From a virus, in the IMG/VR virus record IMGVR_UViG_3300031576_000038, positions 754 through 64,753 of that record: 64,000 nt of DNA. One strand, given 5' to 3'. A program made the translations under genes and the position numbers. The notes under the pieces were generated by a model that was given only the letters and a program-made list of their open reading frames with translations, did not search any database and was not told the DNA's origin. The stretch's first letter is position 1, and every line of letters begins with the position of its first letter. This document shows, piece by piece, positions 5,801 to 23,227 of the stretch.

Positions 5801-6412
5801 TTAGGCTGCTGCATTTATGTGTCGGTGGTTCAAGGTTACCAGACGGTAGAACTCATAAAATTGCTGCTCAGTAAGTTTGCCTTTCATGAGGTTGATTACT
5901 TTGTGGCACCACACGAGGTTAGGTGCTGAATATGACAAGTTTGAATCAAGCCTATCTAATGAGGCACAATCTGGACGACGCAACTCTCTATTGCTGGCTG
6001 GCATGTGCAAAGGTAGGCGTGTGTAATAACACGCGCGTTCCTGAAGAAGAAACTGTTTCCACAACTCGTCTGGCGTTGCCTCAAACGCAATACTTCGCTT
6101 TTGCGCACTTTTGAGAACCATCTTCATCGTGGCATGAGATAACTCACCAGCGAGAGGAGGCGGCGGTTGCCGCCCAGAGATTAGGTTACATCGGGCACAC
6201 CCGACACTTTGATGCCTGTGAAGTCTACTGCCTAGTCGCACGCTTTCATATCCACAATGGATACACTTACAATCCCAAAGTGCTCCATGAGGACTTGTCT
6301 TGGTGCTTCTCCCAAGCGCTTGTTGTGTCCCAAATATCTGCCCAGCAATATCAAATGCTAGACAAAATTTGCCATCTTCGCGATTTCTGTTTGGTATACT
6401 AGGCATCATCTT
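5801..6412 (-). CDS. hypothetical Cys/His-rich protein
   Basis: Internal start at MMPSIPN. Carries CIHCGYES and GCARC zinc-binding-like motifs. Confidence 0.4.
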   Translation of the reverse strand, partial: KMMPSIPNRNREDGKFCLAFDIAGQIFGTQQALGRSTKTSPHGALWDCKCIHCGYESVRLGSRLHRHQSVGCARCNLISGRQPPPPLAGELSHATMKMVLKSAQKRSIAFEATPDELWKQFLLQERACYYTRLPLHMPASNRELRRPDCASLDRLDSNLSYSAPNLVWCHKVINLMKGKLTEQQFYEFYRLVTLNHRHINAAA

Positions 6413-6860
6413 CTTGAAGTCCTTTCCGAATCTCCATGAGCAGCCGGCCCAGCCAGTTCTCGCCGTGGCCCTTGCAGATGCCCCAATAGACATCGCCCCA
6501 GGTGTTGCCTTCAACCAGCATGACGCTGCCGGTGTCGCGAAGTTGTTTGCCAAGCAAGCTGCCTTGCCTGAACTTCTGCGACAGTAGTCGCCGCATCACA
6601 TCGAGCTTGCGGTCATGCCAGTCAGTCGGCAGCAGGTGCTTGCAGGCTTCGGCAACCTTCTTTGCCTGCCCAGGCGTCTTTGCAGCCTTCACCAACTCGC
6701 GCGGCTCCTTGAGCGTGGGCCAGTGGCCGATGAACTTCTCGTACTGATAGGCGTGCTCGACGGTCGGCAGTTCCATGCCGTCTGCGGCCTTGACCATAGA
6801 CGGCCAGAAGTTGCTCAGGAAACGATTGGGGCCTGTGAAGGAACGAATCACCGGGTCCAT
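6399..6860 (-). CDS. NADAR (YbiA-like) domain protein
   Basis: Reads NRFLSNFWPS, PTVEHAYQYEKF and GNTWGDVYWGICKGHGENWLGRLLMEIRK. This lines up with the E. coli YbiA motifs FSNFAAWP, PTSEHYFQAQKF and DAYWGDGGHGKGKNRLGYLLMELRE. Confidence 0.8.
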   Translation of the reverse strand: MDPVIRSFTGPNRFLSNFWPSMVKAADGMELPTVEHAYQYEKFIGHWPTLKEPRELVKAAKTPGQAKKVAEACKHLLPTDWHDRKLDVMRRLLSQKFRQGSLLGKQLRDTGSVMLVEGNTWGDVYWGICKGHGENWLGRLLMEIRKGLQEDDA

Positions 6861-7297
6861 GTTGCACCTTTTGCTTTGCGGTCGTAGAGCACAATCGAGC
6901 CGGCTACTGCGAAGTTGAGACATTGAGTCGTTGGAATCTGGATGCAAGGGAACTGCTTCAGCAGTGCATCCGGTAGTCCACCACCTTCGCTGCCAAGCAG
7001 ATAGATGGCCTGGGCTGGGTGGACGAACTTCGGCAAGGAGAAGCTTCGCTCTGTCAGTTCAATGCACACCAAGCGCGAGTTCAGCGGCCGATGCGACAGC
7101 ATGTCCTCAAGGTCCTGGTAGTTGTAGCACGGCATATGCTGGGCGCTGTTGACTGTGTCCGATGACTGCCTCTTGTACTTCCTGCCCACCGTAAAGAGAA
7201 AATCGGCCTCGAACGCAAGAGCACTTCGGAACAAGGTCCCAACATTGCATTCCTTCTCCGGATACCAAATGCCAATACCGGCGTAGCCCCTAGACAT
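6848..7297 (-). CDS. SpoU/TrmL-like RNA 2'-O-methyltransferase (SPOUT)
   Basis: Start at MSRGYAGIGIW with GAGGAGG upstream. Carries LLGSEGGGLP and SIVLYD, motifs seen in the TrmH/TrmL family. Confidence 0.6.
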   Translation of the reverse strand: MSRGYAGIGIWYPEKECNVGTLFRSALAFEADFLFTVGRKYKRQSSDTVNSAQHMPCYNYQDLEDMLSHRPLNSRLVCIELTERSFSLPKFVHPAQAIYLLGSEGGGLPDALLKQFPCIQIPTTQCLNFAVAGSIVLYDRKAKGATWTR

Positions 7298-7493
7298 GGC
7301 CAACCTCCTCGTGATGACAGTCGAGACAGCGAAGGACAGGACCTTCGCCAAACTCAGCGTCAGTCAAGGCAAACAATGGAACGTCACACACAGGGCACAA
7401 ATAGTCCCTGACATAGATGCCGTCGTCGTGGTAAATAGACCGCAAGAACTCCTTGCCGTATGAGCATAGCTCACGGTAGCTGACGAGAATCAT
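7290..7493 (-). CDS. small zinc-ribbon protein
   Basis: CPVCD and CLDCHH motifs. Its stop overlaps the methyltransferase start. Confidence 0.4.
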   Translation of the reverse strand: MILVSYRELCSYGKEFLRSIYHDDGIYVRDYLCPVCDVPLFALTDAEFGEGPVLRCLDCHHEEVGHV

Positions 7494-8227
7494 AGCAAGT
7501 TCTCAATGACAAGCTGCGACCAGTTTTCGTAACGGTCGAGCAAGCTCCTGTGCTGTGAGACAGGCAAGAACTTGCCATTCTCCACCGCCGGGTCGCGAAA
7601 AGACAGCGGAGCGAAACCAACTTGAATCTGATGAACGATGCCGAAGTGGACCTTGCCAACGTCATCGCTGTCGTCATTGATGAGGCCGACGATGTTGGAG
7701 CTTCGCATCATACGAAGCGACACTTCCTCGTTCAGTTCTCGCCAGAAGGCAATGTCGTAGGCTTCGCCAGGTTCGCCGTCTGCCGGGTTGATGTGTCCGC
7801 CGACGCCGACTGACCACTTATCGTGCAGGCGGCTCTCGCCGCCCTTCTTCGTGCGCTGATAGCAGAAGACGTGGTTGTTGCGCCGCAAGATGGTATACGG
7901 GATGAGTTGCTTCAACTTCGGGTCCTTCTCAGCGCGGTCGCGGTCCACATAGAACAGGTTCTCCGGCGTGAGAATGGCAGACCGATAACGAAAAATTTCG
8001 GCCGGGTCCGCAATGATACCCTGGAACGTGCCGAGGAAGTCGAGCAGGTTCGCGTAGAAGCACAGCACCTGCTCGCCATTGTACTTCGATACCGGAACCG
8101 GAACTGGCTCAGGCTCAGCAGGAAGAGGCCAGTCAATGGCCGGCGGTTGGATTACCGGCAGCGGCACCGACGCCGGCGCGAGTGGCTTCTTCTTGAACAG
8201 ACCAGCGAAGAATTTGGAAAGGCTCAT
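7490..8227 (-). CDS. Nudix hydrolase with proline-rich N-terminus
   Basis: Nudix-box-like GGHINPADGEPGEAYDIAFWRELNEEVSL. Confidence 0.55.
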   Translation of the reverse strand: MSLSKFFAGLFKKKPLAPASVPLPVIQPPAIDWPLPAEPEPVPVPVSKYNGEQVLCFYANLLDFLGTFQGIIADPAEIFRYRSAILTPENLFYVDRDRAEKDPKLKQLIPYTILRRNNHVFCYQRTKKGGESRLHDKWSVGVGGHINPADGEPGEAYDIAFWRELNEEVSLRMMRSSNIVGLINDDSDDVGKVHFGIVHQIQVGFAPLSFRDPAVENGKFLPVSQHRSLLDRYENWSQLVIENLL

Positions 8228-9252
8228 TATGGCTTCCTTTGCTCTGCGGCTCGCCCGCCGCCGTCTCCGTATGCACGAAGGGCCTCGGGGTCACCATGCT
8301 TCTGAATCACCCGGTCCATTCCGAGTGCGATGGTTTCTTTCTTGATGTGCTGGCATATCGTTTCATCAGTGCCAGGGAACATCGTCTTGCCGAAGTGACA
8401 CAGCCGGTTGCACTTCCAGTCTGGATAGATGAGCTTTGGTCGCGTGCAGTTGCGAATCAGGTTGAAGCGCTTCTCCAGAATCTTCTTGGTGACTTCCAGG
8501 TCACTACGATTGAAGTCGAGCGTATAGGCACCGCCGTCGTTGATGAACACGATGGTGACTATGATTTCGGTTGCTTCCGGACACACCCGACTGAGGGCGT
8601 AGTGATAGAGGCGAAGCTGCGGGTCATTCCGCAAATCCTTCCACTCTTTTACTTTGCCAGTGGCCCAATCTTTGCGTTGGCCAGTCTTCCAGTCCACAAG
8701 CTCGATGACGCCGGGGCAGTCTTCCATTTCGCAGACCAGGTCCACGGTGCCCTTGAGCCCAAGGTAGCCTTCGATTTTGGAACCATCGGCCATCTTGTAG
8801 GAGTAGCGAGCCCAGGGCTCTTCGATGGTGAAGTCGAAATACTTCTCCGGCCACTTCACGATACGGTTGAGCGGATTGAACATGCCCTGAGACATGGTCA
8901 TCGCCTTGTAGGTCCAATCGCGGCAGTCGTCCAGGTCGGCCTCAGTCCAAATGTGCGTCGTCGGCCTGAGCTTCGTGTAACACTTCCATGCGAGGTCAAC
9001 AGCCTGGTCAGTCGTGAACTTCTTCACTGACCACTTCTCGCCAAGCTCTTCGTCCTCGAACACCTTCCTCTTCTGCTGAATCGCCAGCTTCTGTCTGGCC
9101 AGCAACTCCAGTGCCTTGTGGGTAATGGAGCCCTTGTCGGCCTTCTTATTGCCTGGCTCTCTCATGCCCAGCGTGTAGCTGATGAAGAATTTCTGCGGAC
9201 AAAAGTCCCAGGTGTTGTAACTGCTGCTACGAAGATAGAGTAAGGGAATCAT
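8227..9252 (-). CDS. PD-(D/E)XK nuclease, Cas4/RecB-family exonuclease-like
   Basis: Start at MIPLLYL. N-terminal CPQKFF, a DLVCEMEDCPGVIELVDWK nuclease motif, and a C-terminal Cys cluster CNRLCHFGKT...C. Confidence 0.6.
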   Translation of the reverse strand: MIPLLYLRSSSYNTWDFCPQKFFISYTLGMREPGNKKADKGSITHKALELLARQKLAIQQKRKVFEDEELGEKWSVKKFTTDQAVDLAWKCYTKLRPTTHIWTEADLDDCRDWTYKAMTMSQGMFNPLNRIVKWPEKYFDFTIEEPWARYSYKMADGSKIEGYLGLKGTVDLVCEMEDCPGVIELVDWKTGQRKDWATGKVKEWKDLRNDPQLRLYHYALSRVCPEATEIIVTIVFINDGGAYTLDFNRSDLEVTKKILEKRFNLIRNCTRPKLIYPDWKCNRLCHFGKTMFPGTDETICQHIKKETIALGMDRVIQKHGDPEALRAYGDGGGRAAEQRKP

Positions 9253-9476
9253 ACCAGGGGAGTCTCCTGCAAGAGGTCGCAATCCAAGCAGTGGTAATAA
9301 TGGTCTGAACCGCCGCCGTAATCGTAGTGAGTCCAATCTTCTCGGTGTTCGTGAGGACACGACTCTTGCAAGCAACGTAGCTTGGCTTGTAGGATTTTGC
9401 CTTTGGCCTTATGCTCGCGAATCCGCTGCTTGGCCTGCTCGACTTTGTCTTTGATGGTCTTCAAGCCACTTGGCAT
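9249..9476 (-). CDS. hypothetical protein (coiled coil plus zinc finger)
   Basis: Start at MPSGLKTIKDK. Third-position GC is high. An alternative overlapping frame runs 9409-9648. Confidence 0.35.
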   Translation of the reverse strand: MPSGLKTIKDKVEQAKQRIREHKAKGKILQAKLRCLQESCPHEHREDWTHYDYGGGSDHYYHCLDCDLLQETPLV

Positions 9477-9648
9477 AGTGTTCGACTTTCGCTTTTGCCG
9501 CCGCCTCTGACCGGGCTTGACAAATAATGCGGCGGTGAATTTTGTGGTCTGCGTGAAAAGACGTATCAGACACAAGCTCAACATCCCACATACCGTACCA
9601 ATCACGCCGCGAATGACGCATCCGACAGTTCGTGCCGGCACTAGCCAT
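9409..9648 (-). CDS. hypothetical protein (alternative overlapping frame)
   Basis: Starts MASAGTNCRMRHSRRDWYGMWDVEL. It overlaps the previous call, so only one of the two, or a frameshifted fusion, is real. Confidence 0.25.
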   Translation of the reverse strand: MASAGTNCRMRHSRRDWYGMWDVELVSDTSFHADHKIHRRIICQARSEAAAKAKVEHYAKWLEDHQRQSRAGQAADSRA

Positions 9649-9668
9649 TACCAGGAAGTCTTTCTTTG

Positions 9669-10691
9669 TCACTGCACTTCCTCCTTGGGTGCCCAATCGG
9701 TGATGGCACCCTCTGGAGGCTGCTTGGCAAGGCCGTGGTTCACAAGCTTCTCAAGAACCAACTGGTTTTGACGTTCCATCGTCATGCCGTCGTTGAAGGC
9801 GACAATGGCGAACTTCGCCCAATCGAACTTATTGGGGTCAAGAGCGCACTCGCTTTCGTGCTGGTCTTGTCCTTTGAATATGTCCATTGTAAAACGAACC
9901 ACCACGCCGCCGTCGCCTTGAACGGCATCAACTTCGTTGGGAAAGCGGATGTCGTCGATGAACGCCACGTCGCCGCCCCAAGCCTTGATTTCGCGAATGC
10001 ACGCCTGAGCCCAGATGTCGCCCCACATGCGGCGAAAGATGCCTGTACCAACCTCTTGCAGCACTTGCCGCGCTGTCATTTGGTCTGTGGCCCCTGGCAC
10101 CTTCATGTAAGTCGGCAAGTATTCCTTCTCGGGCTGACGAATCGGCTGTTCGCCGTTCGGCGATGGAGGAGCCTGGACTTCTGCCGGCTTGTCTTCCTGC
10201 ATTGTGGATGCGAGCCCGACAATGCCGCCAACAACGCCGCCAACGGCAGCGCCGGTCACACTGACACCGGCTCCAATGGCAGCACCGGCAATCGCGCCAT
10301 GCACGAGGCCGCTGGTTGCATCCTTCCATCGCCAATGCTTCGGAGCGCCCTTCTCGTCACGCTCGTTGTTGTAAGCAGTGATGCGGTTGATAATCTCTTG
10401 GAAGTGCGGCAGGTCACCCCATAGGTATCGCGTGGGCGAGTTCTTGTCTTCGTCGGTGCCGTAGACTTGGCGTGGCTCCAGCCCGAGAACCTCGACGGCG
10501 AAGCGCTTGAGTGGCCCGGCCATCGAGAAGCGTTTCACGTTGGTATGCGTGGGAGGAAAGACTTTGTAACCGTCTATCCTCGCCTCACATTGCGGCTGCG
10601 GAAGAATCAGGTCAGCGTAGTTCATCAGGAACCGCACGCTTGTGTTCTTGCCGCTTTGTTTCTTACCGCTGAATCCGATGATTAGAGTCAT
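9669..10691 (-). CDS. deoxynucleoside monophosphate kinase (T4 gp1-like) with glycine-rich hydrophobic insert
   Basis: MTLIIGFSGKKQSGKNT is a P-loop. FSMAGPLKRFA and DDIRFPNE match dNMP kinase. There is an unusual GAIAGAAIGAGVSVTGAAVGGVVGGIVGLAS insert. Confidence 0.6.
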   Translation of the reverse strand: MTLIIGFSGKKQSGKNTSVRFLMNYADLILPQPQCEARIDGYKVFPPTHTNVKRFSMAGPLKRFAVEVLGLEPRQVYGTDEDKNSPTRYLWGDLPHFQEIINRITAYNNERDEKGAPKHWRWKDATSGLVHGAIAGAAIGAGVSVTGAAVGGVVGGIVGLASTMQEDKPAEVQAPPSPNGEQPIRQPEKEYLPTYMKVPGATDQMTARQVLQEVGTGIFRRMWGDIWAQACIREIKAWGGDVAFIDDIRFPNEVDAVQGDGGVVVRFTMDIFKGQDQHESECALDPNKFDWAKFAIVAFNDGMTMERQNQLVLEKLVNHGLAKQPPEGAITDWAPKEEVQ

Positions 10692-10692
10692 G

Positions 10693-11865
10693 TTATCTCC
10701 TGGCCTTTTCTAAGAGCGGCGAGAGCAGTTCCTTGACAGCCGAAGGCTGCATTTCGCCAAGGTCCTTCTTGGGTAGTTCCGGGCGGAAGATTCGATACAG
10801 ACGATGAAGCTGCTTGGTCAATGCTTCAGCGGCTTCGTTGCCTGGTTCGTCGCTATTGGTCAAGATGACGACAGAAATGGCACCTGAAGCTTCCAGGATA
10901 CATTGCTGCTGGTCACTAAGAGACGTGCCAAGCATTCCAACGCCTTGCCCAAAGCCCGACTCTTCGAGTCGCCACACATCCCCTGGGCCTTCACACAACA
11001 GGACTACGCCTGTTGTTTTGATAGTTCGCTGTGCGAACCAAAAATTGTACAGATGGCTTTCACGAGCGAAGCCATCGCTATTCCGCCACTTGGAGCACGC
11101 CTGCGGCGGATACTTGTTACAAAACGTCTCCTGGTCATGCCAGAGCTTGCATCCGTTGCATTGTGGATAGATACTACGAGCAGTGAAGCCGACACAGCAC
11201 GTGTAGTTGTTGTCGTAAATGGGCACAACAACTCTGTTGTAAAACGGTTTTGTTGGGTCCTTGCATAAGCCGGCGTCATATCTGTCGAGCACTTCAGCGG
11301 ACCATCCGCGAAGCTTGAAGTATTCAGCAGGTATGTGAAGGCGGTCGCGAACGTGGGCTCGGGTAACGCTACTCACTGGTACAGCCGGCGCTCTTGTCAC
11401 TACTGAAACAGTAGACGCGAAGGCTCTCTTTTCCAGTTCCTCGTCGTCCACCTTGATAGCCCATAGCTTTTGACCAATGAAGTTGCAACACCAGTCCACG
11501 GCTTCTTTGAAGCTGGCGCTGCGATTGCTGTCGGGGTTCATCCAGTCATACTTCTGATGCGACAGTATACCGCGCACGAAACCAACGATGGTCTTTTTGA
11601 AGAAGGCTTCGCAGTGATGCGTGTTGCATCGCCATTTCCCCGGGAGGTCCCCACTGTGATACAGGTTTAGACCACTTGGATTATCGCCGCCGTGAATTGG
11701 ACAAGCGCCAACGTAAAGCTTGTTTGTCTTGTGCAGGGAAAGGCCCAGTTTGTCGAACAGGTCGTCAAGCCGGCTGCACAGTATGAACTGAAGGGTCTGA
11801 ATACGACCCTGGTCATAATAGATTGAATCTGGCTTCATTCGTCCTCGCATGTATCCAAGGGGCAA
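10693..11865 (-). CDS. dnaG: DNA primase (DnaG-type: zinc finger plus TOPRIM)
   Basis: CPIHGGDNPSGL...CNTHHC zinc finger. TOPRIM motifs LCEGPGD and ILTNSDEPGNEAA. Confidence 0.8.
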   Translation of the reverse strand: MPLGYMRGRMKPDSIYYDQGRIQTLQFILCSRLDDLFDKLGLSLHKTNKLYVGACPIHGGDNPSGLNLYHSGDLPGKWRCNTHHCEAFFKKTIVGFVRGILSHQKYDWMNPDSNRSASFKEAVDWCCNFIGQKLWAIKVDDEELEKRAFASTVSVVTRAPAVPVSSVTRAHVRDRLHIPAEYFKLRGWSAEVLDRYDAGLCKDPTKPFYNRVVVPIYDNNYTCCVGFTARSIYPQCNGCKLWHDQETFCNKYPPQACSKWRNSDGFARESHLYNFWFAQRTIKTTGVVLLCEGPGDVWRLEESGFGQGVGMLGTSLSDQQQCILEASGAISVVILTNSDEPGNEAAEALTKQLHRLYRIFRPELPKKDLGEMQPSAVKELLSPLLEKARR

Positions 11866-12143
11866 TGGCGTCCGCTTCGCGTTGGCTCATCGTCGCGAAG
11901 TTGTGGACAGTGTTCACAGTCGCAATAGTCGTCGCTGTCAGCCTGACAGAGCGTGATAAGACGCTGTTGAAGATGGAGTCGTGGCTTTGGCAGGTTCAAT
12001 TCCGACTCAACGTAGCGCAGCGCCTCATTCGTCAGCCTTGTCAGTTCGGAAACTTCAGCGGCCTTTATCGTCAGGCGGCGAAGCTTTCTCTTGAGAGCTT
12101 TCCTCTGTTTCTCCAAATCCAATTTGTCCTTGTTTTGTGTCAT
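11835..12143 (-). CDS. hypothetical coiled-coil/Cys-rich protein
   Basis: Internal start at MTQNKDK. It overlaps the DnaB 3' end, so the start is uncertain. Confidence 0.3.
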   Translation of the reverse strand: MTQNKDKLDLEKQRKALKRKLRRLTIKAAEVSELTRLTNEALRYVESELNLPKPRLHLQQRLITLCQADSDDYCDCEHCPQLRDDEPTRSGRHCPLDTCEDE

Positions 12144-13569
12144 TGACCACGAATCCTTTCTGAGTGGCCGCAGAGCCTGCTGCCATCTCGCTTTTCGTTG
12201 GCCCTTCAGCAATCTTGGCTCGTTCGTAGGTCGCCCGCATGTTGATGTAGTCGCCGTCTCGGAGACCAGGTCCGTGCCGGCAAATCAGCGGCATCAACTT
12301 GTGAGTATAGGTTCGGGACTCGCCAGACTCGCTGGCTCGTTCCTCGTCGGCCTTCCACTTGTAAATGCTAAAGCTCGTCACATCATCGAGGATACCGTCA
12401 GAGCCACGAATGACTCGGGTGTCTTCGTAGTCAATGCCGTCGCGATTCAATTGCGCGAAGGCCAGGCAGCTGACGCCGTACCGCCCCATGAAGTTCTTCA
12501 GCCCGCTCGTCATAAAGCGGAGTAGTTGGTGCTCGGCGATGTTGTTCTTGATGGCCGTCGCACTGATGAGCTTCAGGTAGTCGAATATGATGACGCACGG
12601 ATTCGCCTTGCCGTTGCCGGCGAGCCCAACGGTTCGCATGACCCAACGGCGCATCCGTGCCAGGATGTCCTCGAACTCCATTCCAATGACAGAATCGTAG
12701 AAATACGGAAACGTAGAAAGACGCTCCGATGCCTCCATCAGCCGCTTCTTCTCTTCCCTGCTAAGTTTGCCCCTCTCGATACTTTCGCTAGGGATGTCCG
12801 CGAGACAGGCCCCCACGCGAATCTGGTGCTCTTCCTTCGTCATCTCACGGTCGATGTTGAGTACCGGGACCTTCACCACGCCCGCGATGTGCAGGCCGAT
12901 GTTGTCCACCAGGAACGTCTTGCCAGACTTCTGGCGGGCTCCGATGAGGTCAACGCCATTGCCCCTCAAGCCGCCGCCAATGGCCCTGTTGTAGCGTGTG
13001 TAGGGCGTTGGAACGCCCATCATCTGGCGCGGGTTGTCAATCAGGTACTGGTAGTATTCGGCGGCACCTTCACCCATCAGGCCAGGTCCGGACGAGTTCC
13101 CGCCAGCCAGCCGCGTAGCGAACTCGCAAATCGGGTTCTCAGCCAGGCCGACGATTTCTTCGAGCGGCTCGTCGCCGGTGACCGCTTCCAGCCTGGGCTC
13201 GATGGCCTTGACCTCACCCTTGAGGTCGCGGGTGATTTCCAGCTTACGAACGCGAGCCGCCAGGTGTCGAACTGTCGGCGGCTCAACCACCATCTTCATG
13301 ACGCCGCGCAAGTGAGCGGCGTCTTCTGTCTTGTCGAAGGCGCTGCTCAGGCCAAGCGAGTTGGCTGCGGAGAGCACCGAAGGGAAGTCAACCTTGTCCA
13401 CCTGGCGGTCTCGAAGTATGTGTTCGAGGCACGCGAATAAAATCTGATTGGTCCTGATGGCGAAGCTTTCCGTCCTGACGATGTCGGCCACGTCCATGTA
13501 GGCGTTCGAGCCAAACAGGAAGAGGCCGGCGAGCACGCCGCGTTCTGCGGCCGGGTCCACGAGAATCAT
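12055..13569 (-). CDS. dnaB: replicative DNA helicase (DnaB family)
   Basis: DnaB N-domain ERGVLAGLFL, Walker A GARQKSGKT and RecA-like core motifs. Start at MILVDPAAERG overlaps the upstream stop as ATGA. Confidence 0.85.
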   Translation of the reverse strand: MILVDPAAERGVLAGLFLFGSNAYMDVADIVRTESFAIRTNQILFACLEHILRDRQVDKVDFPSVLSAANSLGLSSAFDKTEDAAHLRGVMKMVVEPPTVRHLAARVRKLEITRDLKGEVKAIEPRLEAVTGDEPLEEIVGLAENPICEFATRLAGGNSSGPGLMGEGAAEYYQYLIDNPRQMMGVPTPYTRYNRAIGGGLRGNGVDLIGARQKSGKTFLVDNIGLHIAGVVKVPVLNIDREMTKEEHQIRVGACLADIPSESIERGKLSREEKKRLMEASERLSTFPYFYDSVIGMEFEDILARMRRWVMRTVGLAGNGKANPCVIIFDYLKLISATAIKNNIAEHQLLRFMTSGLKNFMGRYGVSCLAFAQLNRDGIDYEDTRVIRGSDGILDDVTSFSIYKWKADEERASESGESRTYTHKLMPLICRHGPGLRDGDYINMRATYERAKIAEGPTKSEMAAGSAATQKGFVVNDTKQGQIGFGETEESSQEKASPPDDKGR

Positions 13570-14270
13570 TTCACTGCCCTCGCGATGCAACTGTTGCAGA
13601 TGTATGAGCCGCGTTCGTCGTCTTTGCTGAGCCGGCGCGGAGCAGCGTTCGGATTCACTTCCTCCGTGCGGTCGCATTTGCTGCATTTCAGCGTCACCAT
13701 CTTCACTGGCGGACGCCTCGGACTCGGTGCCTTGGGCAGCACCTTCTTGTCGAACTCAGATTCCGCTGCGGCCAGTTGGCCGTCATCCACAAATGTGTTC
13801 GTCATGCCAGGCTTGAACGGTAGTTTGCGGGCCTCCCTCTTCCCGTCTTCACGCACCTGCTGGGCTGGCTCGTTGTGTTGAACTCGGAACTTCGCGTATT
13901 CATCTTCCGGTTCGGGTTCTGGTTCCGGCTCTAAGTCAGGCAGCTTCGTACCGGCCGGAGCGCCGGCGAGTTGGCCGTTCTCGGCAAACCGTTGAGCGAG
14001 CTTGTGAGCAACCTCTTTTGCCTTGCTCTTCTTCTTTGGCTTCACCGCTTCGGTCTTGGCCGCTTCGCGTTCTTGGTAAGCCTTCTCAGCCGGCTCAAGC
14101 ATCGAGTTGCACTTGTCACGCAGTTCCATGACAAGCGCGTGCCAACTGCCGCCAGCGTGAGCATGTGGGACAATGGCTTCCCCGGTCAGTGCCGTGTAGC
14201 CATCGCATACCAGTTGCCAGTTTGCCGATTTGATGCCTTTGCGAATCAGGTCCAGGGGGGTAGCCATCAT
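13566..14270 (-). CDS. hypothetical protein with C-terminal zinc ribbon
   Basis: 234 aa with CSKC...CNSC at the C-terminus and an acidic EPEPEPEPE linker. Confidence 0.45.
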   Translation of the reverse strand: MMATPLDLIRKGIKSANWQLVCDGYTALTGEAIVPHAHAGGSWHALVMELRDKCNSMLEPAEKAYQEREAAKTEAVKPKKKSKAKEVAHKLAQRFAENGQLAGAPAGTKLPDLEPEPEPEPEDEYAKFRVQHNEPAQQVREDGKREARKLPFKPGMTNTFVDDGQLAAAESEFDKKVLPKAPSPRRPPVKMVTLKCSKCDRTEEVNPNAAPRRLSKDDERGSYICNSCIARAVK

Positions 14271-14596
14271 TGGCCTCTCTTTGCTTGTCTGAGCCCGTCG
14301 AGCGCTTTGGCCAGGGCTTCCACTTTGGCAGCCAGGAAGCTGATGCGGTCTTGCCGAATCAGCGCGTGAACACGAATACGTTCGAGCTTCTGAGCGGCCT
14401 GGTTCTGGCTGATTGCTCCAAGACGCCGCTCTTCATAGCCGTAGCCCTTCTGATGTCCGAGTTTCGCACCGATGAGTCGTTTGATGGACTCGTCGGCCCA
14501 CCGCACCCGAGATGATTCCACGTTGACGGCTCGTTGCAAATGAGCAGAGAAGAAGAGGAGCACCACGGCGGCTTCGCCACACTCGACCGCCGACAT
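14267..14596 (-). CDS. hypothetical protein
   Basis: Start trimmed to MSAVECGE so it does not overlap the DUF559 gene. The long Ser/Thr-rich N-extension is doubtful. Confidence 0.3.
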   Translation of the reverse strand: MSAVECGEAAVVLLFFSAHLQRAVNVESSRVRWADESIKRLIGAKLGHQKGYGYEERRLGAISQNQAAQKLERIRVHALIRQDRISFLAAKVEALAKALDGLRQAKRGQ

Positions 14597-14687
14597 GCGC
14601 GGAAGCTGTGAATGGTCAAGCGCAAGCAGTCGCGTTGCTTCGCTGGCCGTATTCGGATTGATGTTCGCCGGCAGGCCCAGGCTCAAC

Positions 14688-15020
14688 TCATACTGGTTCA
14701 GAATCCTGTCCAGATGGGCCAAGGACTCTTCCGGTCCATTGCTCGTCGGTTTCGTCGTGGGGCAGTTCGACGTGGGTGATGCCGTTGAGTTCGCACCAGC
14801 GCCGCTTTCGATTGTCGCGTCCGCGCCCCTTGAGGAATCCGAGTTTGTGTCGGTGGAAGTGGGGGACGAATTGATAATGCTGTTCGCCATGTACTTCTAC
14901 CAATAGTTTGCGCGGCGGGATGTAAAAATCGGCTTCGAGCCCGCCTGTTCCTGGAAGCCATACCTCTTCGAGACGCTGGTCAAACGGAAAAATCTTTTCG
15001 AGAAGCTGACGAGCCCGCAT
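14688..15020 (-). CDS. DUF559 (Vsr-like) endonuclease-domain protein
   Basis: ADFYIPPRKLLVEVHGEQHY and RDNRKRRWCELNGITHVEL fit the DUF559 pattern aDFy..klviEvDG..H...D..R...L...G..vlR. Confidence 0.5.
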   Translation of the reverse strand: MRARQLLEKIFPFDQRLEEVWLPGTGGLEADFYIPPRKLLVEVHGEQHYQFVPHFHRHKLGFLKGRGRDNRKRRWCELNGITHVELPHDETDEQWTGRVLGPSGQDSEPV

Positions 15021-15097
15021 ATGGTTAGCTGATGGCTTCTCGCTTGGGTTGGTCCTTGGTCGCCATGCGTATTCCTGACCGTCCAGTCCTACAATTT

Positions 15098-16186
15098 TCA
15101 CTCGCTGTCTCCACTCGTTGGGGTGCCGACAATGCCGCGAAGCTTGTCCTCCAGGAGCTTGACCCATTCCGGGTTCTCAAGCAGGGCCTGGTAGACCTTC
15201 TCGCCGCCCTGATACTTTGGCGGCTTCTTCTCGTCCACGAACTTCAGGACGAACCATGAGCCGCTAAGCTCGACCAGGCCCGCGTCCATGCCCAGCACGA
15301 TAGCCTCATAGAGCTTGTCGATGCCGGTGCCGAAGCGAATGTGTGACACAGCCGTCATGCCGGGAATCATCAACTTGCTGGTGTTGCAGGCCCAATTTAT
15401 CTTGAGCCCGATTTGCTCTTCGCCGGCCTTCCACGCTTCCTTGCCGATGGTGCGGAGCATGTAGTCGTACTGGTACTGCACAGCCCTGGCTGACCGCTCC
15501 GATAGACGCTGCGTCTTGATGTCGGAAATCAGATGCGAAATGACCAGCATGATGGTTCGGTTGACGGGAACCACCTGGCTCATCTGACGCACGAACTGCG
15601 AGAACAGACGAGCGCCACCGGCAATGCCGCCGCTCTCGCCAATCTCGGCGTTGAGTTCTCCTTGGTCACATAGGGCCGAGGCCGAATCCAGGATGACGCA
15701 ACAGCCCGGGATGTCCTTGACACAACGGGCGACAATCCGCAGATGCTCGTGAGCCGGCAGAATGTGGCCTGGGCGCGACTGAATGATGCGGAACTTGTCC
15801 TTACTCAGGTCGAGTCCCTTGATGCCAGACAGCACGTTCCGGGCAAGCCGGCCTTCGACCTTGGCGTAGATGACCACTCGATTGCCGTTCTCCGGCTGCT
15901 GGCAGGCTGCCGCAATGCACAGAGCCAGCGTGGTCTTACCAGTCTTCGGATTGCCTGTAATGCCCACCCAGCTGCCTTCCTCGATGCCGCCAGTGATGGA
16001 GTCGATGGCCGGGCTGGTGGGGACAATTTGCGGAGTCGCGCTCAGTGCATCGGAGCCCGGAACGAAGACGCCGGCCCCGTATTCCTTGTCCAAGTCTTTG
16101 ACGATGCGGGCCATCACTGCCCCAACATCGACAACGTCGTCGGGCGGCTCGATAATCTCTTGTTCTTGTTTTGGTTTCTTAGCCAT
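15098..16186 (-). CDS. RecA/UvsX-like recombinase
   Basis: Walker A GNPKTGKTTLAL. Blocks YGAGV...GGIEEG and ILDSASAL are RecA-like. Confidence 0.75.
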   Translation of the reverse strand: MAKKPKQEQEIIEPPDDVVDVGAVMARIVKDLDKEYGAGVFVPGSDALSATPQIVPTSPAIDSITGGIEEGSWVGITGNPKTGKTTLALCIAAACQQPENGNRVVIYAKVEGRLARNVLSGIKGLDLSKDKFRIIQSRPGHILPAHEHLRIVARCVKDIPGCCVILDSASALCDQGELNAEIGESGGIAGGARLFSQFVRQMSQVVPVNRTIMLVISHLISDIKTQRLSERSARAVQYQYDYMLRTIGKEAWKAGEEQIGLKINWACNTSKLMIPGMTAVSHIRFGTGIDKLYEAIVLGMDAGLVELSGSWFVLKFVDEKKPPKYQGGEKVYQALLENPEWVKLLEDKLRGIVGTPTSGDSE

Positions 16187-16758
16187 TAGAGACCCTTCAG
16201 TGTTGACGCTGTTGATTGCTTGGGAACAAACGGCTTTCGCGGTTCCTCCACAACTTCCTCAGCAGGAAGAGGAGGGGGCGGCGGCGCTTGTTCCGCTAGT
16301 TCCTTGGCTCTATTCATTCTTTCCTGCTCAGCGTGAATGAGCGGAGTGAACCAAGCTGCTGAGAAGCTCATTACCTTCTTCCCCTTCGGCGAGCGAAGAG
16401 CGGCGATGATTGCTTCGAGGCTGTATGACTTGAGCAACGTGTAAGCCTGCGTTCGCTGCAAGGCGTACAATTGCTTCCACTGGTCTTGCTCCCAAAAACG
16501 GTCCGGCAGCCGGAGTCCATTGGCCCTGGCATTGCGGTCCATCATGTTCTCTGCCAGGTACTGGCCGGCGTCTAAATCGCGGCTGGACCCAAACCGCGAC
16601 TTGTAGATTTGCTTGCGCGAGTGCGTATCCTCAGCCTTGACACGACTCATGTTGAAGCACTGACGATTACAACTCTTCCGTTTCGCAAACGCTGATGGAG
16701 CTTCGCCATCGCGCTTGACCAAAGGTTGGCCGCAGCCAACACAAATGCGAGCTTCCAT
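16186..16758 (-). CDS. hypothetical protein with N-terminal zinc finger
   Basis: CVGCGQP...C..C motif. Proline-rich C-terminus. Confidence 0.45.
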   Translation of the reverse strand: MEARICVGCGQPLVKRDGEAPSAFAKRKSCNRQCFNMSRVKAEDTHSRKQIYKSRFGSSRDLDAGQYLAENMMDRNARANGLRLPDRFWEQDQWKQLYALQRTQAYTLLKSYSLEAIIAALRSPKGKKVMSFSAAWFTPLIHAEQERMNRAKELAEQAPPPPPLPAEEVVEEPRKPFVPKQSTASTLKGL

Positions 16759-16760
16759 GT

Positions 16761-17510
16761 TTAGTCCTCGAACAGTTGATGGTAACGCTTCTTGAACTCC
16801 ATCTCGGCCCGGTCGGGCAGCCAGAACTCCTCGATGCGCATGTCACCAGGGACTCGCGCGAGGCGGTCAACAGTTCGGAGGTAGCCGGTTGTGGTTACGT
16901 CACGGATTTCTGTGCAGAGCATCACGTCGTCAATGTGTTTGACGGCCTTGTGCGTCTGTTCGTCGAGCGGCAGATTGAAGTGTTGGTAGACGACTTGCAT
17001 CATGCGAGCTTCCAGCGATTTGTACACGTCGCCGAGAATGCGCTTGAGGGGCGTGATGACATCCGACAGATATGTCTCAGTCGCATCGTGAACCAAGAAC
17101 GCCTTTTTGTAAGGCTCGCTAATGAGCCAACTACCGATGACGCTATGTTGGGCCACGCTATAGAACTTCTTAGCTTGCCCGCCATACCGACAGAGGTTAG
17201 CGAGGGCATGAGCAATGTCTTCGATGCGAATGTCTTGCGGGCGCGGGTCCTCAAGCCAAATGCGATAGCCTGAGTAAAGCGGAATCCAGGTGCCCTTGCG
17301 GTCCGCGTTGTGTTCCGCGTCCCATGTCGCCATCTCACGAAGGCGATTGGCGATGGCCTCTTGGTTGCCCGTCATTTCTTCTTCGACCCAAAGCTTCTCT
17401 CGTTCGCAGAGCTTGGGGTCTTCAAGACAGGACTGTAGTTTGATGACCGCCTGTTGGTCACGAGTATTGGCCGCAGCCAGGGCCACATAGTCGCGTTCGT
17501 TCGTAATCAT
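16761..17510 (-). CDS. HD-domain phosphohydrolase (YfbR-like 5'-deoxynucleotidase family)
   Basis: YSVAQHS and HDATETYLSD are HD motifs. Start MITNER overlaps the upstream stop as ATGA. Confidence 0.55.
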   Translation of the reverse strand: MITNERDYVALAAANTRDQQAVIKLQSCLEDPKLCEREKLWVEEEMTGNQEAIANRLREMATWDAEHNADRKGTWIPLYSGYRIWLEDPRPQDIRIEDIAHALANLCRYGGQAKKFYSVAQHSVIGSWLISEPYKKAFLVHDATETYLSDVITPLKRILGDVYKSLEARMMQVVYQHFNLPLDEQTHKAVKHIDDVMLCTEIRDVTTTGYLRTVDRLARVPGDMRIEEFWLPDRAEMEFKKRYHQLFED

Positions 17511-17830
17511 TTGTCGCTCCTTTGCGGGACATACTGGCAGCCCCAGCCGAGCTTGCGACATCGCCGCTCGTCCTGAGACCAGCCAAACTCTTCTAAGAAG
17601 CGCCTGAGCTTCAGCGCGCCGGCTTCGATGGTGTTCTTGTCGAACAGGAGCGTCTCTGGCTCACTGCGACAGTCCTTGAAGTCGAAACGCTTCACGCCCT
17701 TCTCGTCGGACTTGACGACGAGAGCGATGCCGAACAAATGCAGGATGGTGCGATTGATTTCAAACAACAAACCTGAATCAATAAGGTACTCGATGGATAA
17801 CTTGTCTTTTGCCCAATTCGTCTTGGCCAT
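17507..17830 (-). CDS. hypothetical protein
   Basis: 107 aa ORF. Confidence 0.4.
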   Translation of the reverse strand: MAKTNWAKDKLSIEYLIDSGLLFEINRTILHLFGIALVVKSDEKGVKRFDFKDCRSEPETLLFDKNTIEAGALKLRRFLEEFGWSQDERRCRKLGWGCQYVPQRSDK

Positions 17831-17878
17831 AGTCGCGCTCCTTTTCGGGGTGACGCGACCATATAGCCAAAGAGTGGC

Positions 17879-18253
17879 CTAGTTGAAAGGCTCGTTTGGA
17901 CGAATTTTGTGAAGATTTTTTTCGTGCTCTTTGAAGAAAGCGTCGTTGCGTTTGGGCTTGCCAGGCTTCGTGATGAACGGACTTGTGCCTTCAGCGGCGT
18001 CGTCGTCCATCGCCTGGTCCCCGGTCATCGCTACGATGCCCTTGCCGGTCTCGAAGTTGGCGAGCTTCTTCTTCTTTGGCTTCGGCTTCTTCTGCGATTC
18101 AGGGAGCTTGTCCAGGACCTCCTGAACCAGGTCCTGGGCGAGCCCGAGGTCCGTTGCCAGTTCTTCGGCCGTCTTCTGGCCGGCGTGCTCTTCGATGTAA
18201 AAGACCTCAGCCTTGTTGGGATGGGTCTCAATCTTCTTCTTTGCCTTGGCCAT
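17879..18253 (-). CDS. hypothetical lysine-rich protein
   Basis: Start at MAKAKKKIETHP. Carries a KKPKPKKKK tract. Confidence 0.4.
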   Translation of the reverse strand: MAKAKKKIETHPNKAEVFYIEEHAGQKTAEELATDLGLAQDLVQEVLDKLPESQKKPKPKKKKLANFETGKGIVAMTGDQAMDDDAAEGTSPFITKPGKPKRNDAFFKEHEKNLHKIRPNEPFN

Positions 18254-18254
18254 A

Positions 18255-18614
18255 TTAGGCCCTTTCCGCTTGGTGAAGGAACAGCGGATTGTCTGTTTCA
18301 AGGAAGCGCACGTAAGAATCGAACGCCTCCTTGGTCGCCTTCACGAAGGCGTACTCCGCTTTGCTGTCATGGATTGGCCAGTTCGGGTTGTAGAGCTTGC
18401 CGGCGTTGTTGCCGGTGGTTGCCCGCTTCAGCCAGTATCGTTCGATGCTTGTCGCGCAATCTTTTGCACGCTTGGCAAGACAGTTTGCCGCGTCAGGCTC
18501 GACGCGCTTGCCGCCAAGAGCGAAGCCATCGACTGTGACCGCTCCCTGCACAACGTCAGGTTCGGCCGGCTTGATGGTGTGGACGACGTAGTCATCTTGT
18601 AAGAGGCTTGGCAT
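18255..18614 (-). CDS. hypothetical protein
   Basis: Internal start at MPSLLQDDYV. Confidence 0.3.
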   Translation of the reverse strand: MPSLLQDDYVVHTIKPAEPDVVQGAVTVDGFALGGKRVEPDAANCLAKRAKDCATSIERYWLKRATTGNNAGKLYNPNWPIHDSKAEYAFVKATKEAFDSYVRFLETDNPLFLHQAERA

Positions 18615-18984
18615 CGGGATTCGCTTTCTTGATGGTGAAATTGAACGTGTCGCCGTCGCATTGAAACTCTTCAACGACGGTCGATGGAATATCATCTTCG
18701 GCGTCATCCTCTTTGATTTCGCCGTAGCCGCCGATGTGAAAGCCGCCCTGCACTTCGATAACAAAACTGCTATCGCCGCAGAACGGGCACGTCGCGCGAA
18801 TCTTCCAGGTTTCGGTTTCGTGTGGTCGGGTACGCCAGATGTCCATGAGGATGGCGTTGCAATTGGAACAGGCAGGATAGATGTGGTTGCCGTCTTGGAG
18901 GTTGCCAGCAATCTTCTCAGCCACTTCTTCTTCGCGGACTTTGCGGCCATGCTTCAATGCAGCGAGACTTTGATTCGGATTCAT
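18592..18984 (-). CDS. hypothetical zinc-ribbon protein
   Basis: Start at MNPNQS. CSNC...CPFC motifs. Confidence 0.4.
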   Translation of the reverse strand: MNPNQSLAALKHGRKVREEEVAEKIAGNLQDGNHIYPACSNCNAILMDIWRTRPHETETWKIRATCPFCGDSSFVIEVQGGFHIGGYGEIKEDDAEDDIPSTVVEEFQCDGDTFNFTIKKANPDAKPLTR

Positions 18985-19181
18985 CGAGCTTTCAACTCCT
19001 TGAGAAGCTGTTCGAGCTTCTGTATTGCCTCTTCTCTGTTTGAGCCGTCGATGACAATCGGAAACTGTCTGACCTTGTGAACTGGTGAGCCAGAACACTC
19101 TCCGGTTTTCAGCATCTCATGCACTTCAGCGTAGAGCCAGATGACCGCGCGGTGCGGTGCGTCGGGGTTGCTCTGTATCAT
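18981..19181 (-). CDS. hypothetical protein
   Basis: 66 aa ORF. Confidence 0.35.
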   Translation of the reverse strand: MIQSNPDAPHRAVIWLYAEVHEMLKTGECSGSPVHKVRQFPIVIDGSNREEAIQKLEQLLKELKAR

Positions 19182-19612
19182 GACTTTTGCCCCGTCTCAA
19201 CGAACTTCGTTACGTCCTTCACAGTGCTCATGTCGAGCGGCTTGTCACTGCGCGGCAGACCTGGGACTTCACCCGACCTGAACCAGGGCGGGTCGTCATC
19301 AGACCGTGCAATACGGGAGGCTCCCTTGGGGAGCTTTCCTTTCGCCTTGCTGACACGTTCCTTTTCTTTCTCGGCCATCTCTTCGAGCTTGGCCTTGCCG
19401 ACACGCTTCGCGTTCTGTTCGGCTTGCTGACCGATGGTCTTTGGATTGCCGTAGACCAGGCAGACAACGTTGTGATTGGTGAACACCTGGCTGAATTTTT
19501 CGCCAGCCTTTTGGCCACACGTCGGGCATTTTTTGGGGTGCGGCGCGTGAATGCTTCGCGACTCTTCGTGAGTCGTGTCGCAGGTATCACAGTGGTATTC
19601 ATAAGTCGGCAT
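19178..19612 (-). CDS. FmdB-family zinc-ribbon protein
   Basis: MPTYEYHCDTCDTTHE...CPTCG matches the FmdB signature. Confidence 0.5.
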   Translation of the reverse strand: MPTYEYHCDTCDTTHEESRSIHAPHPKKCPTCGQKAGEKFSQVFTNHNVVCLVYGNPKTIGQQAEQNAKRVGKAKLEEMAEKEKERVSKAKGKLPKGASRIARSDDDPPWFRSGEVPGLPRSDKPLDMSTVKDVTKFVETGQKS

Positions 19613-19622
19613 GTTGTCTTAC

Positions 19623-19937
19623 CTATTCCGAATACACCAACGGCAGCAAATTGTTTGTCCAATCAATCGTACCCTTATCAGATTCCACATGAGCCCCACG
19701 TCCACCTGGAGTGAACAGAAGGAGGGCCTTGGACGACATGATGGCGTTGATTTGGATTCGCGATAAATTATCGGGAATCTCGATAAAGCCAGCGACCGCC
19801 TTCTCAGCCAGGCTCGCCCAATCGTGAGAGATAACCAGGCCGCGACTGATGAGCTTGTTCTGAATTTCCTTGACCTTTGGCCAGTTCTCCAAGCGACTAG
19901 CCACATACACCTTCGGTAATGATTGTGAAGCGTTCAT
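19623..19937 (-). CDS. nucleoside 2-deoxyribosyltransferase-like (DNPH1/Rcl-like) protein
   Basis: KVYVASRL...HDW...LLLFTPGGRGAHVE fits the N-deoxyribosyltransferase-family fold pattern. This is tentative. Confidence 0.35.
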   Translation of the reverse strand: MNASQSLPKVYVASRLENWPKVKEIQNKLISRGLVISHDWASLAEKAVAGFIEIPDNLSRIQINAIMSSKALLLFTPGGRGAHVESDKGTIDWTNNLLPLVYSE

Positions 19938-20334
19938 CCAACAAGTCCTCCAAATAGGGTTTCACAAAGTCCCAGGTCAAGCCGCCGTTGCCACAGCCCG
20001 GTCGCGGCAGCACGATTGAATGAAGCTTGTACTTGTCGGCAATGGCGACAATTTTTTCGGCACTGCTGCGGATGAGCATCACGTTGGAGTTGTGCTTGTA
20101 GTGTTGCTTGGTCGGGAAGGTGATGATGCCTTCATCGCGACACAGGAAGGGACGGTTGCCATACTTCTCGACCCACTGCCCGAGCTTCTTCGGTAGGTCC
20201 GGGTATTGCTTCTTGGCTTCGAGAGCGACACCGGCCCCCATGACAAGCTCGCCATTGTCCTTGACGATGCCGTTGGTGGTCACGCATCGCCAACTTGCAG
20301 GGACTGTCCAGAGATTGCCTGTGGCTTCCTTCAT
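19897..20334 (-). CDS. macro domain protein (ADP-ribose binding/processing)
   Basis: TTNGIVKDNGELVMGAGVALEAKKQYP and PRPGCGNGGL resemble macrodomain Gly-rich loops. Confidence 0.5.
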   Translation of the reverse strand: MKEATGNLWTVPASWRCVTTNGIVKDNGELVMGAGVALEAKKQYPDLPKKLGQWVEKYGNRPFLCRDEGIITFPTKQHYKHNSNVMLIRSSAEKIVAIADKYKLHSIVLPRPGCGNGGLTWDFVKPYLEDLLDERFTIITEGVCG

Positions 20335-22705: not shown

Positions 22706-23227
22706 TTAGTGGTGACGACTTGATGAACTAACCAGGGAAGAGCTTGATTGAATCTTTTCCCGACCTCCTACGCCGTAACAAATCCGGCATCCTATTGCTT
22801 CACAGATTTGCAACTCGGCTGGCGAGAGACACTCCGGTGAGGAGCGGTCACCGCCCTTCGTGAAGAAGTCGGGTCGAAGAGTGGCAAGGGCGCGGTCAAC
22901 ATATTGCGACCCGTCGTCCCAGGCGACCACGTGGATTACGCCCGCAATGCCGTCGATGAGTTCCATCCGTTCGGCGAGCGGCATGAACACATAACCCTTC
23001 TTCCGTTGCAGGAAGCTGTCGCCGTTGACGATGACAACGAGAAGCTGCCCGAAGCGGCGACTCTCTTGAATACACCGCAGATGACCGACGTGAAGTGGGT
23101 CAAAACCGCCTGACGTGCAAACGATTTTGCGGCCGTGCTCGGGCCCAAATCGAGTCTCCAGGGTGTACCCAAGTGAGCGCTCGGCGTCAAGAACCTGAGC
23201 GAGATGGTCGATGTTCTGCCATATCAT
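22706..23227 (-). CDS. cytidylyl/adenylyltransferase (HxGH nucleotidyltransferase, RfaE-II/NMNAT-like)
   Basis: CTSGGFDPLHVGHL is the HxGH motif. VVIVNGDSFL and KGGD follow. Confidence 0.55.
   Translation of the reverse strand: MIWQNIDHLAQVLDAERSLGYTLETRFGPEHGRKIVCTSGGFDPLHVGHLRCIQESRRFGQLLVVIVNGDSFLQRKKGYVFMPLAERMELIDGIAGVIHVVAWDDGSQYVDRALATLRPDFFTKGGDRSSPECLSPAELQICEAIGCRICYGVGGREKIQSSSSLVSSSSRHH

Follow-up and report, generated by a model that had tools for sequence, protein, structure and literature searches.

An orphan DarG-like macrodomain and a YbiA-type NADAR among the replication genes of a large uncultivated phage: candidate enzymes for the removal of ADP-ribose from DNA

We analysed a 64-kb stretch of phage DNA (IMG/VR record IMGVR_UViG_3300031576_000038, positions 754 to 64,753; called the window below), which encodes a macrodomain protein and a NADAR protein among its DNA replication and nucleotide-metabolism genes. 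On balance we favour the reading that both are orphan antitoxin-type glycohydrolases, which would clear thymine-linked and guanine-linked ADP-ribose from replicating phage DNA, and our confidence in this reading is higher for the macrodomain than for the YbiA-type NADAR. Both proteins belong to their families by profile and structure matches, both keep the active site and the fold of these families, and both are orphans that lie in a conserved replisome context. The first-pass annotation of this DNA had called them together with two Nudix hydrolases (here Nudix1 and Nudix2), and all four open reading frames (ORFs) were present on the minus strand at the given positions, with domain calls that held:

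6399-6860, minus strand: NADAR, 153 aa, orphan, YbiA subfamily, core domain only
7490-8227, minus strand: Nudix1, 245 aa, TM1382-type Nudix with a Pro-rich N-terminus
19897-20334, minus strand: macrodomain, 145 aa, stand-alone, DarG/TARG1 clade
57703-58104, minus strand: Nudix2, 133 aa, generic MutT-like with a canonical Nudix box; adjoins tRNA-Met in a tRNA/RNA-handling region

The same annotation had treated the four genes as one ADP-ribose-processing gene set at 6399-20334, but they span 51 kb, the macrodomain gene is 13 kb from the NADAR and Nudix1 genes, and Nudix2 is 51 kb away and outside that range. All four ORFs were also called independently on a longer contig of the same phage (ERZ27247320 k141_3047316).

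The match of the macrodomain protein to PF01661, the profile proposed for its confirmation, was weak and partial (27.2 bits), and its identity was established instead by PADLOC DarG (E 1.3e-20), by NCBIfam antitoxin_DarG (74.6 bits, covering positions 24-137 of 338, which is the macro part only) and by the PDB entry of DarG 5m31 (E 2.6e-12). When a profile of the 38-member family was compared with the PDB, DarG entries scored 84, 79 and 71 bits and TARG1 scored 56, while all others were at or below 21. The AlphaFold2 (AF2) model, which was built from an alignment without the PhiKZ sequence, had a predicted local distance difference test score (pLDDT) of 95.7, and the top four Foldseek matches were all DarG with template modelling (TM) scores of 0.77-0.81, followed by TARG1 and Poa1p. 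The DarG2 macrodomain (T. aquaticus and M. tuberculosis; 5m31, 5m3e, 5m3i) was thus the best match by sequence, profile and structure, and the protein is predicted to be specifically DarG-like, not a generic macro domain.

The residues were then mapped onto the T. aquaticus DarG (TaqDarG) sites of Jankevicius et al. 2016 (PMC5179494), where mutations of active-site residues abolish or reduce DNA de-ADP-ribosylation. N7, L8, T19/T20, N21, V36, T75 and K76 of the window protein correspond to TaqDarG N8, L9, T20, N22, V31, T79 and K80, and H78, Y79, G113, G115, N116 and G117 correspond to H82, W83, G117, G119, N120 and G121, so that the loop G113-G117 takes the place of G117-G121. Of the 15 active-site residues listed for TaqDarG, 12 are unchanged in the window protein, K80 and N22 among them. 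K76 is invariant across the 38 family members and N21 is present in at least 90% of them. The W83 of DarG, which was proposed to stack on thymine (PMC5179494), is replaced by another aromatic residue (Tyr79) in the window; it is Trp in the family consensus and Ala in TARG1.

Unlike DarG2, the window protein has no C-terminal DarT-binding domain, and its neighbours are a ribonucleotide reductase (RNR) gene and an ORF similar to nucleoside 2-deoxyribosyltransferases (DrHyd), with no adjacent darT; it is not a full-length DarG2 antitoxin. In these respects it resembles AdfM (PhiKZ gp104, Morgan et al. 2026, PMC13309987), which is also a stand-alone DarG2-like macrodomain of about 145-160 aa from a large phage and also lacks the DarT-binding domain. 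The two proteins are 27% identical (E 8e-12), and they have in common the Asn (N23 of PhiKZ aligned with N21 of the window), the Lys (K76) and the MGAG and GC(G/A)NGG loops. They differ in that the window belongs to another phage lineage, in which no chimallin or phage-nucleus genes were seen (no specific search was made), that the window gene directly follows an RNR gene, and that its activity is predicted. Homologues were present in 366 GenBank phage records. The protein is thus a candidate thymidine-ADP-ribose DNA glycohydrolase of the AdfM-like kind.

As the first-pass annotation had claimed, the 153-aa protein is a NADAR: it matched PF08719 with 82.5 bits (E 5e-23, cut-off 35.1), TIGR02464 with 81.2 bits (cut-off 73.7) and PHROG 1017 with E 1.5e-37. 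The PDB matches were YbiA (2b3w, E 3.6e-13) and the Phytophthora NADAR, PnNADAR (8bau, E 1.4e-5). The AF2 model (pLDDT 96.5) had TM scores of 0.82 to YbiA and 0.79 to 8bau, at 34% and 23% identity and with the same core fold, and Foldseek returned no other matches. With the residue numbering of Schuller et al. 2023, PnNADAR E43, K50, W89, E125, D130 and W133 are all kept (as E35, K42, W81, E117, D123 and W126), and R93 corresponds to K85. The catalytic Glu and Lys are both present, so the proposed check of catalytic residues came out positive for the NADAR (Glu, Lys) as well as for the macrodomain (Lys). The window gene differs from those of YbiA and PnNADAR in being phage-encoded and located in a replisome operon.

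A Glu at the E125 position and a TIGR02464 score above the cut-off place the window NADAR by sequence in the YbiA subfamily and not in the DarT1-associated (Asp) or T4-like (His) type. The profile match begins at about residue 11, which leaves no room for a DarG1-like N-terminal extension; there is also no adjacent darT1, so the protein does not qualify as a DarG1. It is closer in organization to AdfN (T4 gp30.3, Bas32 and Bas60; Johannesman et al. 2025, PMC11825919), which are orphan single-domain NADARs of lytic-type phages without the DarG1 extension, and it keeps the same catalytic Glu and Lys (E36 and K43 in T4), as expected for a phage orphan of this kind. It differs from AdfN at the class-defining position, where the T4 type has His, and it scores as YbiA-type. 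A search for the Bas32 AdfN through a T5-like proxy gene (UTK0009) gave no near-identical copies beyond the query phage's own two records. NADAR homologues were found in 463 GenBank phage records; with this number and the 366 records of the macrodomain, chance alone would give roughly 3 records that have both. The window protein is, judging from its residues, a candidate guanine-ADP-ribose glycohydrolase of the AdfN-like kind.

No ADP-ribosyltransferase (ART) or DarT domain was present in the precomputed Pfam lists spanning the whole window (distant ART folds were not searched), so the NADAR and the macrodomain are both regarded as orphans. Self-immunity against a phage-encoded ART or DarT was rejected on the same grounds.

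The NADAR and Nudix1 genes are in one operon, which is part of the replisome operon, with Nudix1 located between a PD-(D/E)XK nuclease gene and NADAR. Four related contigs share the same backbone, and the order of PD-(D/E)XK nuclease, Nudix1, NADAR and DNA polymerase III (PolIII) alpha is kept in the window and in the related loci L024, L026 and L027, with 0-2 variable genes on either side of NADAR. In L024, Nudix1 directly adjoins NADAR, whose stop codon overlaps the start of PolIII alpha. The insertions specific to the window are two genes upstream of NADAR and one downstream:

7290-7493, minus strand: 67-aa zinc-ribbon-like ORF, between Nudix1 and NADAR
6848-7297, minus strand: SpoU-family RNA 2'-O-methyltransferase (Pfam 64.8 bits), with 13 nt at its end shared with the start of NADAR
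5801-6409, minus strand: HNH/endonuclease VII-like ORF (PHROG matches E ~1e-13 to 1e-14), between NADAR and PolIII alpha

The SpoU gene and the 67-aa ORF are not at this position in L024, L026 or L027, and L026 has different, unrelated genes in the SpoU slot; they were apparently inserted in this lineage only, in a phage rich in tRNAs. A functional coupling of SpoU with NADAR, which the 13-nt overlap in a phage with many tRNAs might indicate, was rejected, because the relatives have no SpoU at that position, so that the overlap stems from a local insertion and no pairing is conserved. The HNH ORF was not called by the metagenome gene caller and is missing from L024; a homing endonuclease gene was probably inserted here.

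Within the replisome operon, NADAR is an accessory gene. In L027 (8767-9174 of contig ERZ27247828 k141_513195) it is degenerate: it encodes 135 aa, a change of VEH to VAH removes the catalytic Glu, and there is no D..W motif at the C-terminus. This comparison suggests that some members of the lineage are losing the gene, and it fits an accessory gene under fluctuating selection. The macrodomain gene likewise follows the RNR gene in L021 (66% identical macrodomain) and L022 (56%), and the gene after it varies, being the DrHyd-like ORF in the window, a gene for a 249-aa protein in L021 and an RNA ligase gene in L022. The unrelated Listeria phage LIS04 has a TM1382-type Nudix after its primase and a macrodomain directly after its DNA polymerase, together with an HD protein and a deoxyribosyltransferase, which suggests that such enzymes recur as accessories in the replication modules of phages.

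Nudix1 scored 20.7 bits against the Pfam NUDIX model, 0.4 below the 21.1 cut-off, but it matched PDB 3e57 (TM1382) with E 5e-21 and PHROG 8902 with E 1e-36, and it retains the E-x7-REUxEE motif. The earlier Nudix call therefore stands despite the sub-threshold Pfam score, and the protein is predicted to have a real Nudix fold. It belongs to the TM1382 family by the match to 3e57 and by 40% identity to the homologue of Bacillus phage SP-15, and about 90 additional, Pro-rich residues at its N-terminus set it apart from TM1382-type proteins. A total of 5,442 homologues were found in bacteria and phages, many of them labelled "predicted NUDIX family phosphoesterase" in a family that includes TM1382, and in other phages, SP-15 among them, the homologues adjoin the primase. 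The SP-15 homologue, SP15_092, is annotated as similar to BSU17400, which we take to be B. subtilis ymaB, the last gene of the nrd operon. The sole activity found in the literature is a preliminary dNTP pyrophosphohydrolase activity of YmaB (PMC5960316). The literature search gave nothing relevant on TM1382 and no paper containing the tag BSU17400.

ADP-ribose pyrophosphatases (ADPRases) carry a Pro about 15-16 residues after the Nudix box. Nudix1 has no Pro in this region, and no other ADP-ribose-specific feature was found in it; Nudix2 has a Pro at +15 followed by Gly, yet its best matches are of the MutT type. Nudix1 is more likely a dNTP pyrophosphohydrolase than an ADP-ribose pyrophosphatase, and its more probable job is the house-cleaning of (d)NTPs within the replication module. 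Nudix2 was confirmed by PF00293 (51 bits); its best PDB matches were MutT/Nudix proteins (E ~3e-5), with the ADPRase 3o8s at only 6.5e-4, and all its NCBIfam matches were far under the cut-offs. The present evidence does not allow either protein to be assigned to ADP-ribose processing. The claim that the Nudix pair belongs to the same functional set as NADAR and the macrodomain was not supported, and the two Nudix proteins probably serve other purposes. The suggested counter-defence role is plausible for the NADAR and the macrodomain (from their catalytic residues, models, orphan status and likeness to AdfN and AdfM).

We infer the substrates of the NADAR and the macrodomain, and their role in counter-defence, from the characterized relatives. 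The two orphan ADP-ribosylglycohydrolases would be made as part of the DNA replication and nucleotide-metabolism module, with which their genes are co-directional. The DarG-like macrodomain would remove ADP-ribose from thymidine in single-stranded phage DNA by using Lys76 (K80 of DarG) and Asn21, like DarG2 and the phage AdfM, and the YbiA-type NADAR would cleave the N-glycosidic bond between ADP-ribose and guanine by using Glu35, Lys42 and Glu117, like DarG1 and AdfN. Replication could then proceed in hosts with DarTG2-type or DarTG1-type (or related) DNA-ADP-ribosylating defences. The statement of the first-pass annotation that NADARs reverse the guanine ADP-ribosylation of DNA by DarT toxins is borne out by the literature: the AdfN proteins of T4, Bas32 and Bas60 strip ADP-ribosylated guanine (G-ADPr) and defeat DarTG1 but not DarTG2 (PMC11825919, 2025). 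AdfM strips the ADP-ribose made by DarT2 from DNA, neutralizes DarT2 and rescues cells (PMC13309987, 2026). Because phage NADARs and macrodomains have already been shown to act in this way, the reading is plausible but not new; the counter-defence idea is established knowledge, and the window adds a further case of a known strategy, not a new principle.

Several points weigh against this reading. In the macrodomain, DarG K29 and Q34 are replaced by Ala and Glu. In the NADAR, PnNADAR R79, which contacts the pyrophosphate, is replaced by Glu71, the only listed residue that is lost, and the protein belongs to the YbiA subfamily (by Glu at the E125 position and the TIGR02464 score). E. coli YbiA hydrolyses G-ADPr in vitro, as does every NADAR subtype assayed, yet it did not rescue cells from DarT1 toxicity, and T4 gp30.3 likewise gave no rescue in vivo (PMC11125620); Johannesman et al. 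see the YbiA-like NADARs as housekeeping enzymes (PMC11825919). The synteny of the NADAR locus is also conserved only among related phages, so it reflects vertical inheritance and does not independently support a functional coupling. In 17 unrelated viral contigs from IMG/VR, NADAR had none of the other genes within 10 kb of it. An independent coupling of Nudix1 with NADAR was rejected from these 17 loci, in which no Nudix1, SpoU or macrodomain gene occurred within that distance.

Three further genes of the NAD/ADP-ribose type, which the first-pass annotation had overlooked, bear on the alternatives:

19623-19937, minus strand: DrHyd (nucleoside 2-deoxyribosyltransferase-like) ORF, 104 aa, overlapping the end of the macrodomain gene by 41 nt
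37236-37751, minus strand: YpsA-like SLOG protein, 171 aa (PF06908 43.8 bits, cut-off 27.7)
60936-61274, minus strand: DUF4326 protein, 112 aa (PF14216 81.3 bits)

YpsA-SLOG belongs to the same NAD/ADP-ribose domain network as the macrodomain and NADAR, and Iyer et al. 2022 (PMC9503650) place DUF4326 with SLOG, Macro and NADAR among the domains that process ADP-ribose in viruses. The 19623-19937 ORF has 101 distant homologues, and PF05014 was matched by 30 of 39. In the alignment W40, G81 and E85 are kept, but the HVELGxA motif and about 45 C-terminal residues are lost, so by its sequence the ORF appears to be a C-terminally truncated member of the DrHyd family. No such ORF lies downstream of the macrodomain gene in the relatives, and it is absent from L021-L023. 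The window thus holds the whole domain repertoire of Iyer et al. 2022, dispersed but with one direction of transcription. As in their viral network, the same stand-alone domains occur in one large phage genome; unlike in that network, the genes here are unfused and adjacent only as macrodomain/DrHyd-like ORF and Nudix1/NADAR. Combinations of such domains are common in large phages (PMC9503650), and their co-occurrence in the window is for this reason not statistically remarkable.

For Macro, NADAR, SLOG and DUF4326-type domains, Iyer et al. 2022 proposed small-molecule substrates (PMC9503650). An alternative reading is accordingly that the Macro, NADAR, SLOG, DUF4326 and Nudix proteins degrade soluble NAD-derived immune signals or toxins and not modified DNA; the substrates would be cyclic ADP-ribose variants, ADP-ribose-1''-phosphate or ADP-ribose cyclic phosphate (ADPr>P) from host TIR, sirtuin or RES-type defences. 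The full repertoire in the window, with two Nudix proteins and the DrHyd-like ORF, agrees with this, as does the finding that such domains co-occur in DNA viruses above chance (PMC9503650). We nevertheless consider it unlikely, since the macrodomain is of the DarG clade and is aromatic at the proposed base-stacking position (W83), the characterized phage homologues AdfM and AdfN act on DNA, and the genes are scattered over 55 kb without a shared operon, with NADAR and the macrodomain among replisome genes. RNA might be the substrate instead, as NADARs are known from the literature to reverse guanosine ADP-ribosylation of RNA as well. The NADAR would then reverse such marks on tRNA, rRNA or mRNA made by RNA-targeting ART toxins, the macrodomain would clear ADP-ribose-phosphate by-products of RNA repair, and both would serve the tRNA/RNA-repair apparatus. 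The 16 tRNAs, the RlaP nucleotidyltransferase, the AAA_33 kinase, two RNA ligases at or just past the window end, the TROVE/Ro60-like proteins, the overlap of the SpoU RNA 2'-O-methyltransferase gene with the NADAR start and the RNA ligase gene after the macrodomain gene in L022 all point in this direction, and the antitoxin of YarT, which resembles RNA-targeting ARTs, is a YbiA-like NADAR (PMC11125620). But the SpoU and 67-aa genes are lineage-specific, with L024 and L026 different at this place, the gene lists contained no Tpt1/KptA gene as a source of ADPr>P, the known substrates of DarG-type macrodomains are all DNA (PMC13309987), and NADAR is embedded between nuclease and polymerase genes, so that a role in RNA repair seems quite improbable.

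A housekeeping function without any role in defence was also weighed, in which the NADAR is a YbiA-type N-glycosidase that destroys reactive intermediates of the riboflavin pathway and the macrodomain is a generic O-acetyl-ADP-ribose deacetylase or phosphatase. The NADAR does pass the equivalog-domain model "riboflavin biosynthesis intermediates N-glycosidase" (81.2 vs 73.7 bits), its homologues are labelled ribA/ribD-fused or YbiA, and PHROG 335 carries the label "phosphatase". However, there were no riboflavin genes in the precomputed gene lists for the window, both genes lie in the replisome module, the NADAR subfamily occurs in 463 phage records without an obvious need for riboflavin damage control, and YbiA itself hydrolyses G-ADPr (PMC11125620). 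This explanation is very hard to sustain.

A stronger form of the favoured reading is a "pan-DarT" arrangement, in which two-enzyme DNA de-ADP-ribosylation is built into replisome operons, with the NADAR for guanine (translationally coupled to PolIII alpha in the relatives) and the macrodomain after RNR for thymine. We hold this form to be doubtful; if it were true, the upstream TM1382-type Nudix might dispose of the released ADP-ribose. If the removal of ADP-ribose from DNA by both proteins is confirmed, a single phage would carry, among its replication genes, both enzymatic answers to DarT, one for guanine and one for thymine marks, and counter-defence of the AdfN and AdfM type would extend to an uncultivated phage lineage of about 194 kb. 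The window NADAR would also offer a natural test for the action of YbiA-type NADARs on DNA in vivo, and a YbiA-subfamily NADAR that is a true replication-coupled DNA repair or counter-defence enzyme could explain the role of bacterial YbiA, whose gene shares a LexA-controlled operon with dinG.

At 100% identity the window matches parts of the 194,118-bp ENA metagenome contig ERZ27247320 k141_3047316 and parts of a 123-kb Logan contig; the source is a large uncultivated phage of about 194 kb. A megablast of a 15-kb region against GenBank phages gave no relative, and a scan of viral contigs with the macrodomain protein gave no match. The scan of genome contigs with a macrodomain homologue (P0006) gave only two distant matches in metagenome-assembled genomes, which did not point to a host. 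All long ORFs of the window are on the minus strand, and 16 tRNA genes lie in it. The replication genes encode a split PolIII alpha, a DnaQ-like exonuclease, single-stranded DNA-binding protein, DnaB, primase and a RecA-like protein, and those of nucleotide metabolism encode a class II RNR, dCMP deaminase, ThyX, a deoxynucleoside monophosphate (dNMP) kinase and an HD-type dNMP phosphatase.

PolIII alpha is encoded by two genes, one for the PHP and pol3_alpha part (667 aa, 3649-5652, minus strand) and one for the finger/HHH/OB part (553 aa, 180-1841, minus strand), which are separated by about five small genes including that of the DnaQ-like RNase_T exonuclease; the split is kept in the relatives L026 and L027. 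The dNMP kinase-like protein (PF21448; 9669-10691, minus strand) has an internal glycine-zipper, membrane-like insertion, GAIAGAAIGAGVSVTGAAVGGVVGGIVGLAS, with weak matches to C19orf12 and Gly-zipper models, which is unusual in a nucleotide kinase.

Genes resembling an RNA-repair kit are the RlaP nucleotidyltransferase gene (35189-36133, minus strand), the AAA_33 kinase gene (59999-60496, minus strand), a PHA02142-type RNA ligase gene cut by the window end (63555-64000, minus strand) and a T4 Rnl1-like ligase gene just beyond it (640-1785 of L031). Two adjoining ORFs with TROVE/Ro60-vWA domains at 52265-53867 (minus strand) represent a Ro60-like protein for RNA quality control, apparently one that has been split or frameshifted, and genes for a VWA protein, Cpn10 and a Band_7 protein are near them.

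Glycosyltransferase genes are located at 32616-33779, 38056-38934 and 62222-63154 (all minus strand) and, beyond the window start, at 18042-20462 of L002; they are of the GT4 (including weak "GT4-conflict" matches), GT2 and GT47-like types. Together with ThyX, dCMP deaminase, the dNMP kinase and the HD dNMP phosphatase, they hint that the DNA bases are hypermodified and possibly glycosylated. A gene for a cytidylyltransferase-like protein (22706-23227, minus strand; PF01467, 42 bits) separates the genes of dCMP deaminase and RNR; it is kept in L022 and could encode an adenylyltransferase of the nicotinamide mononucleotide/nicotinic acid mononucleotide (NMN/NaMN) type relevant to NAD metabolism.

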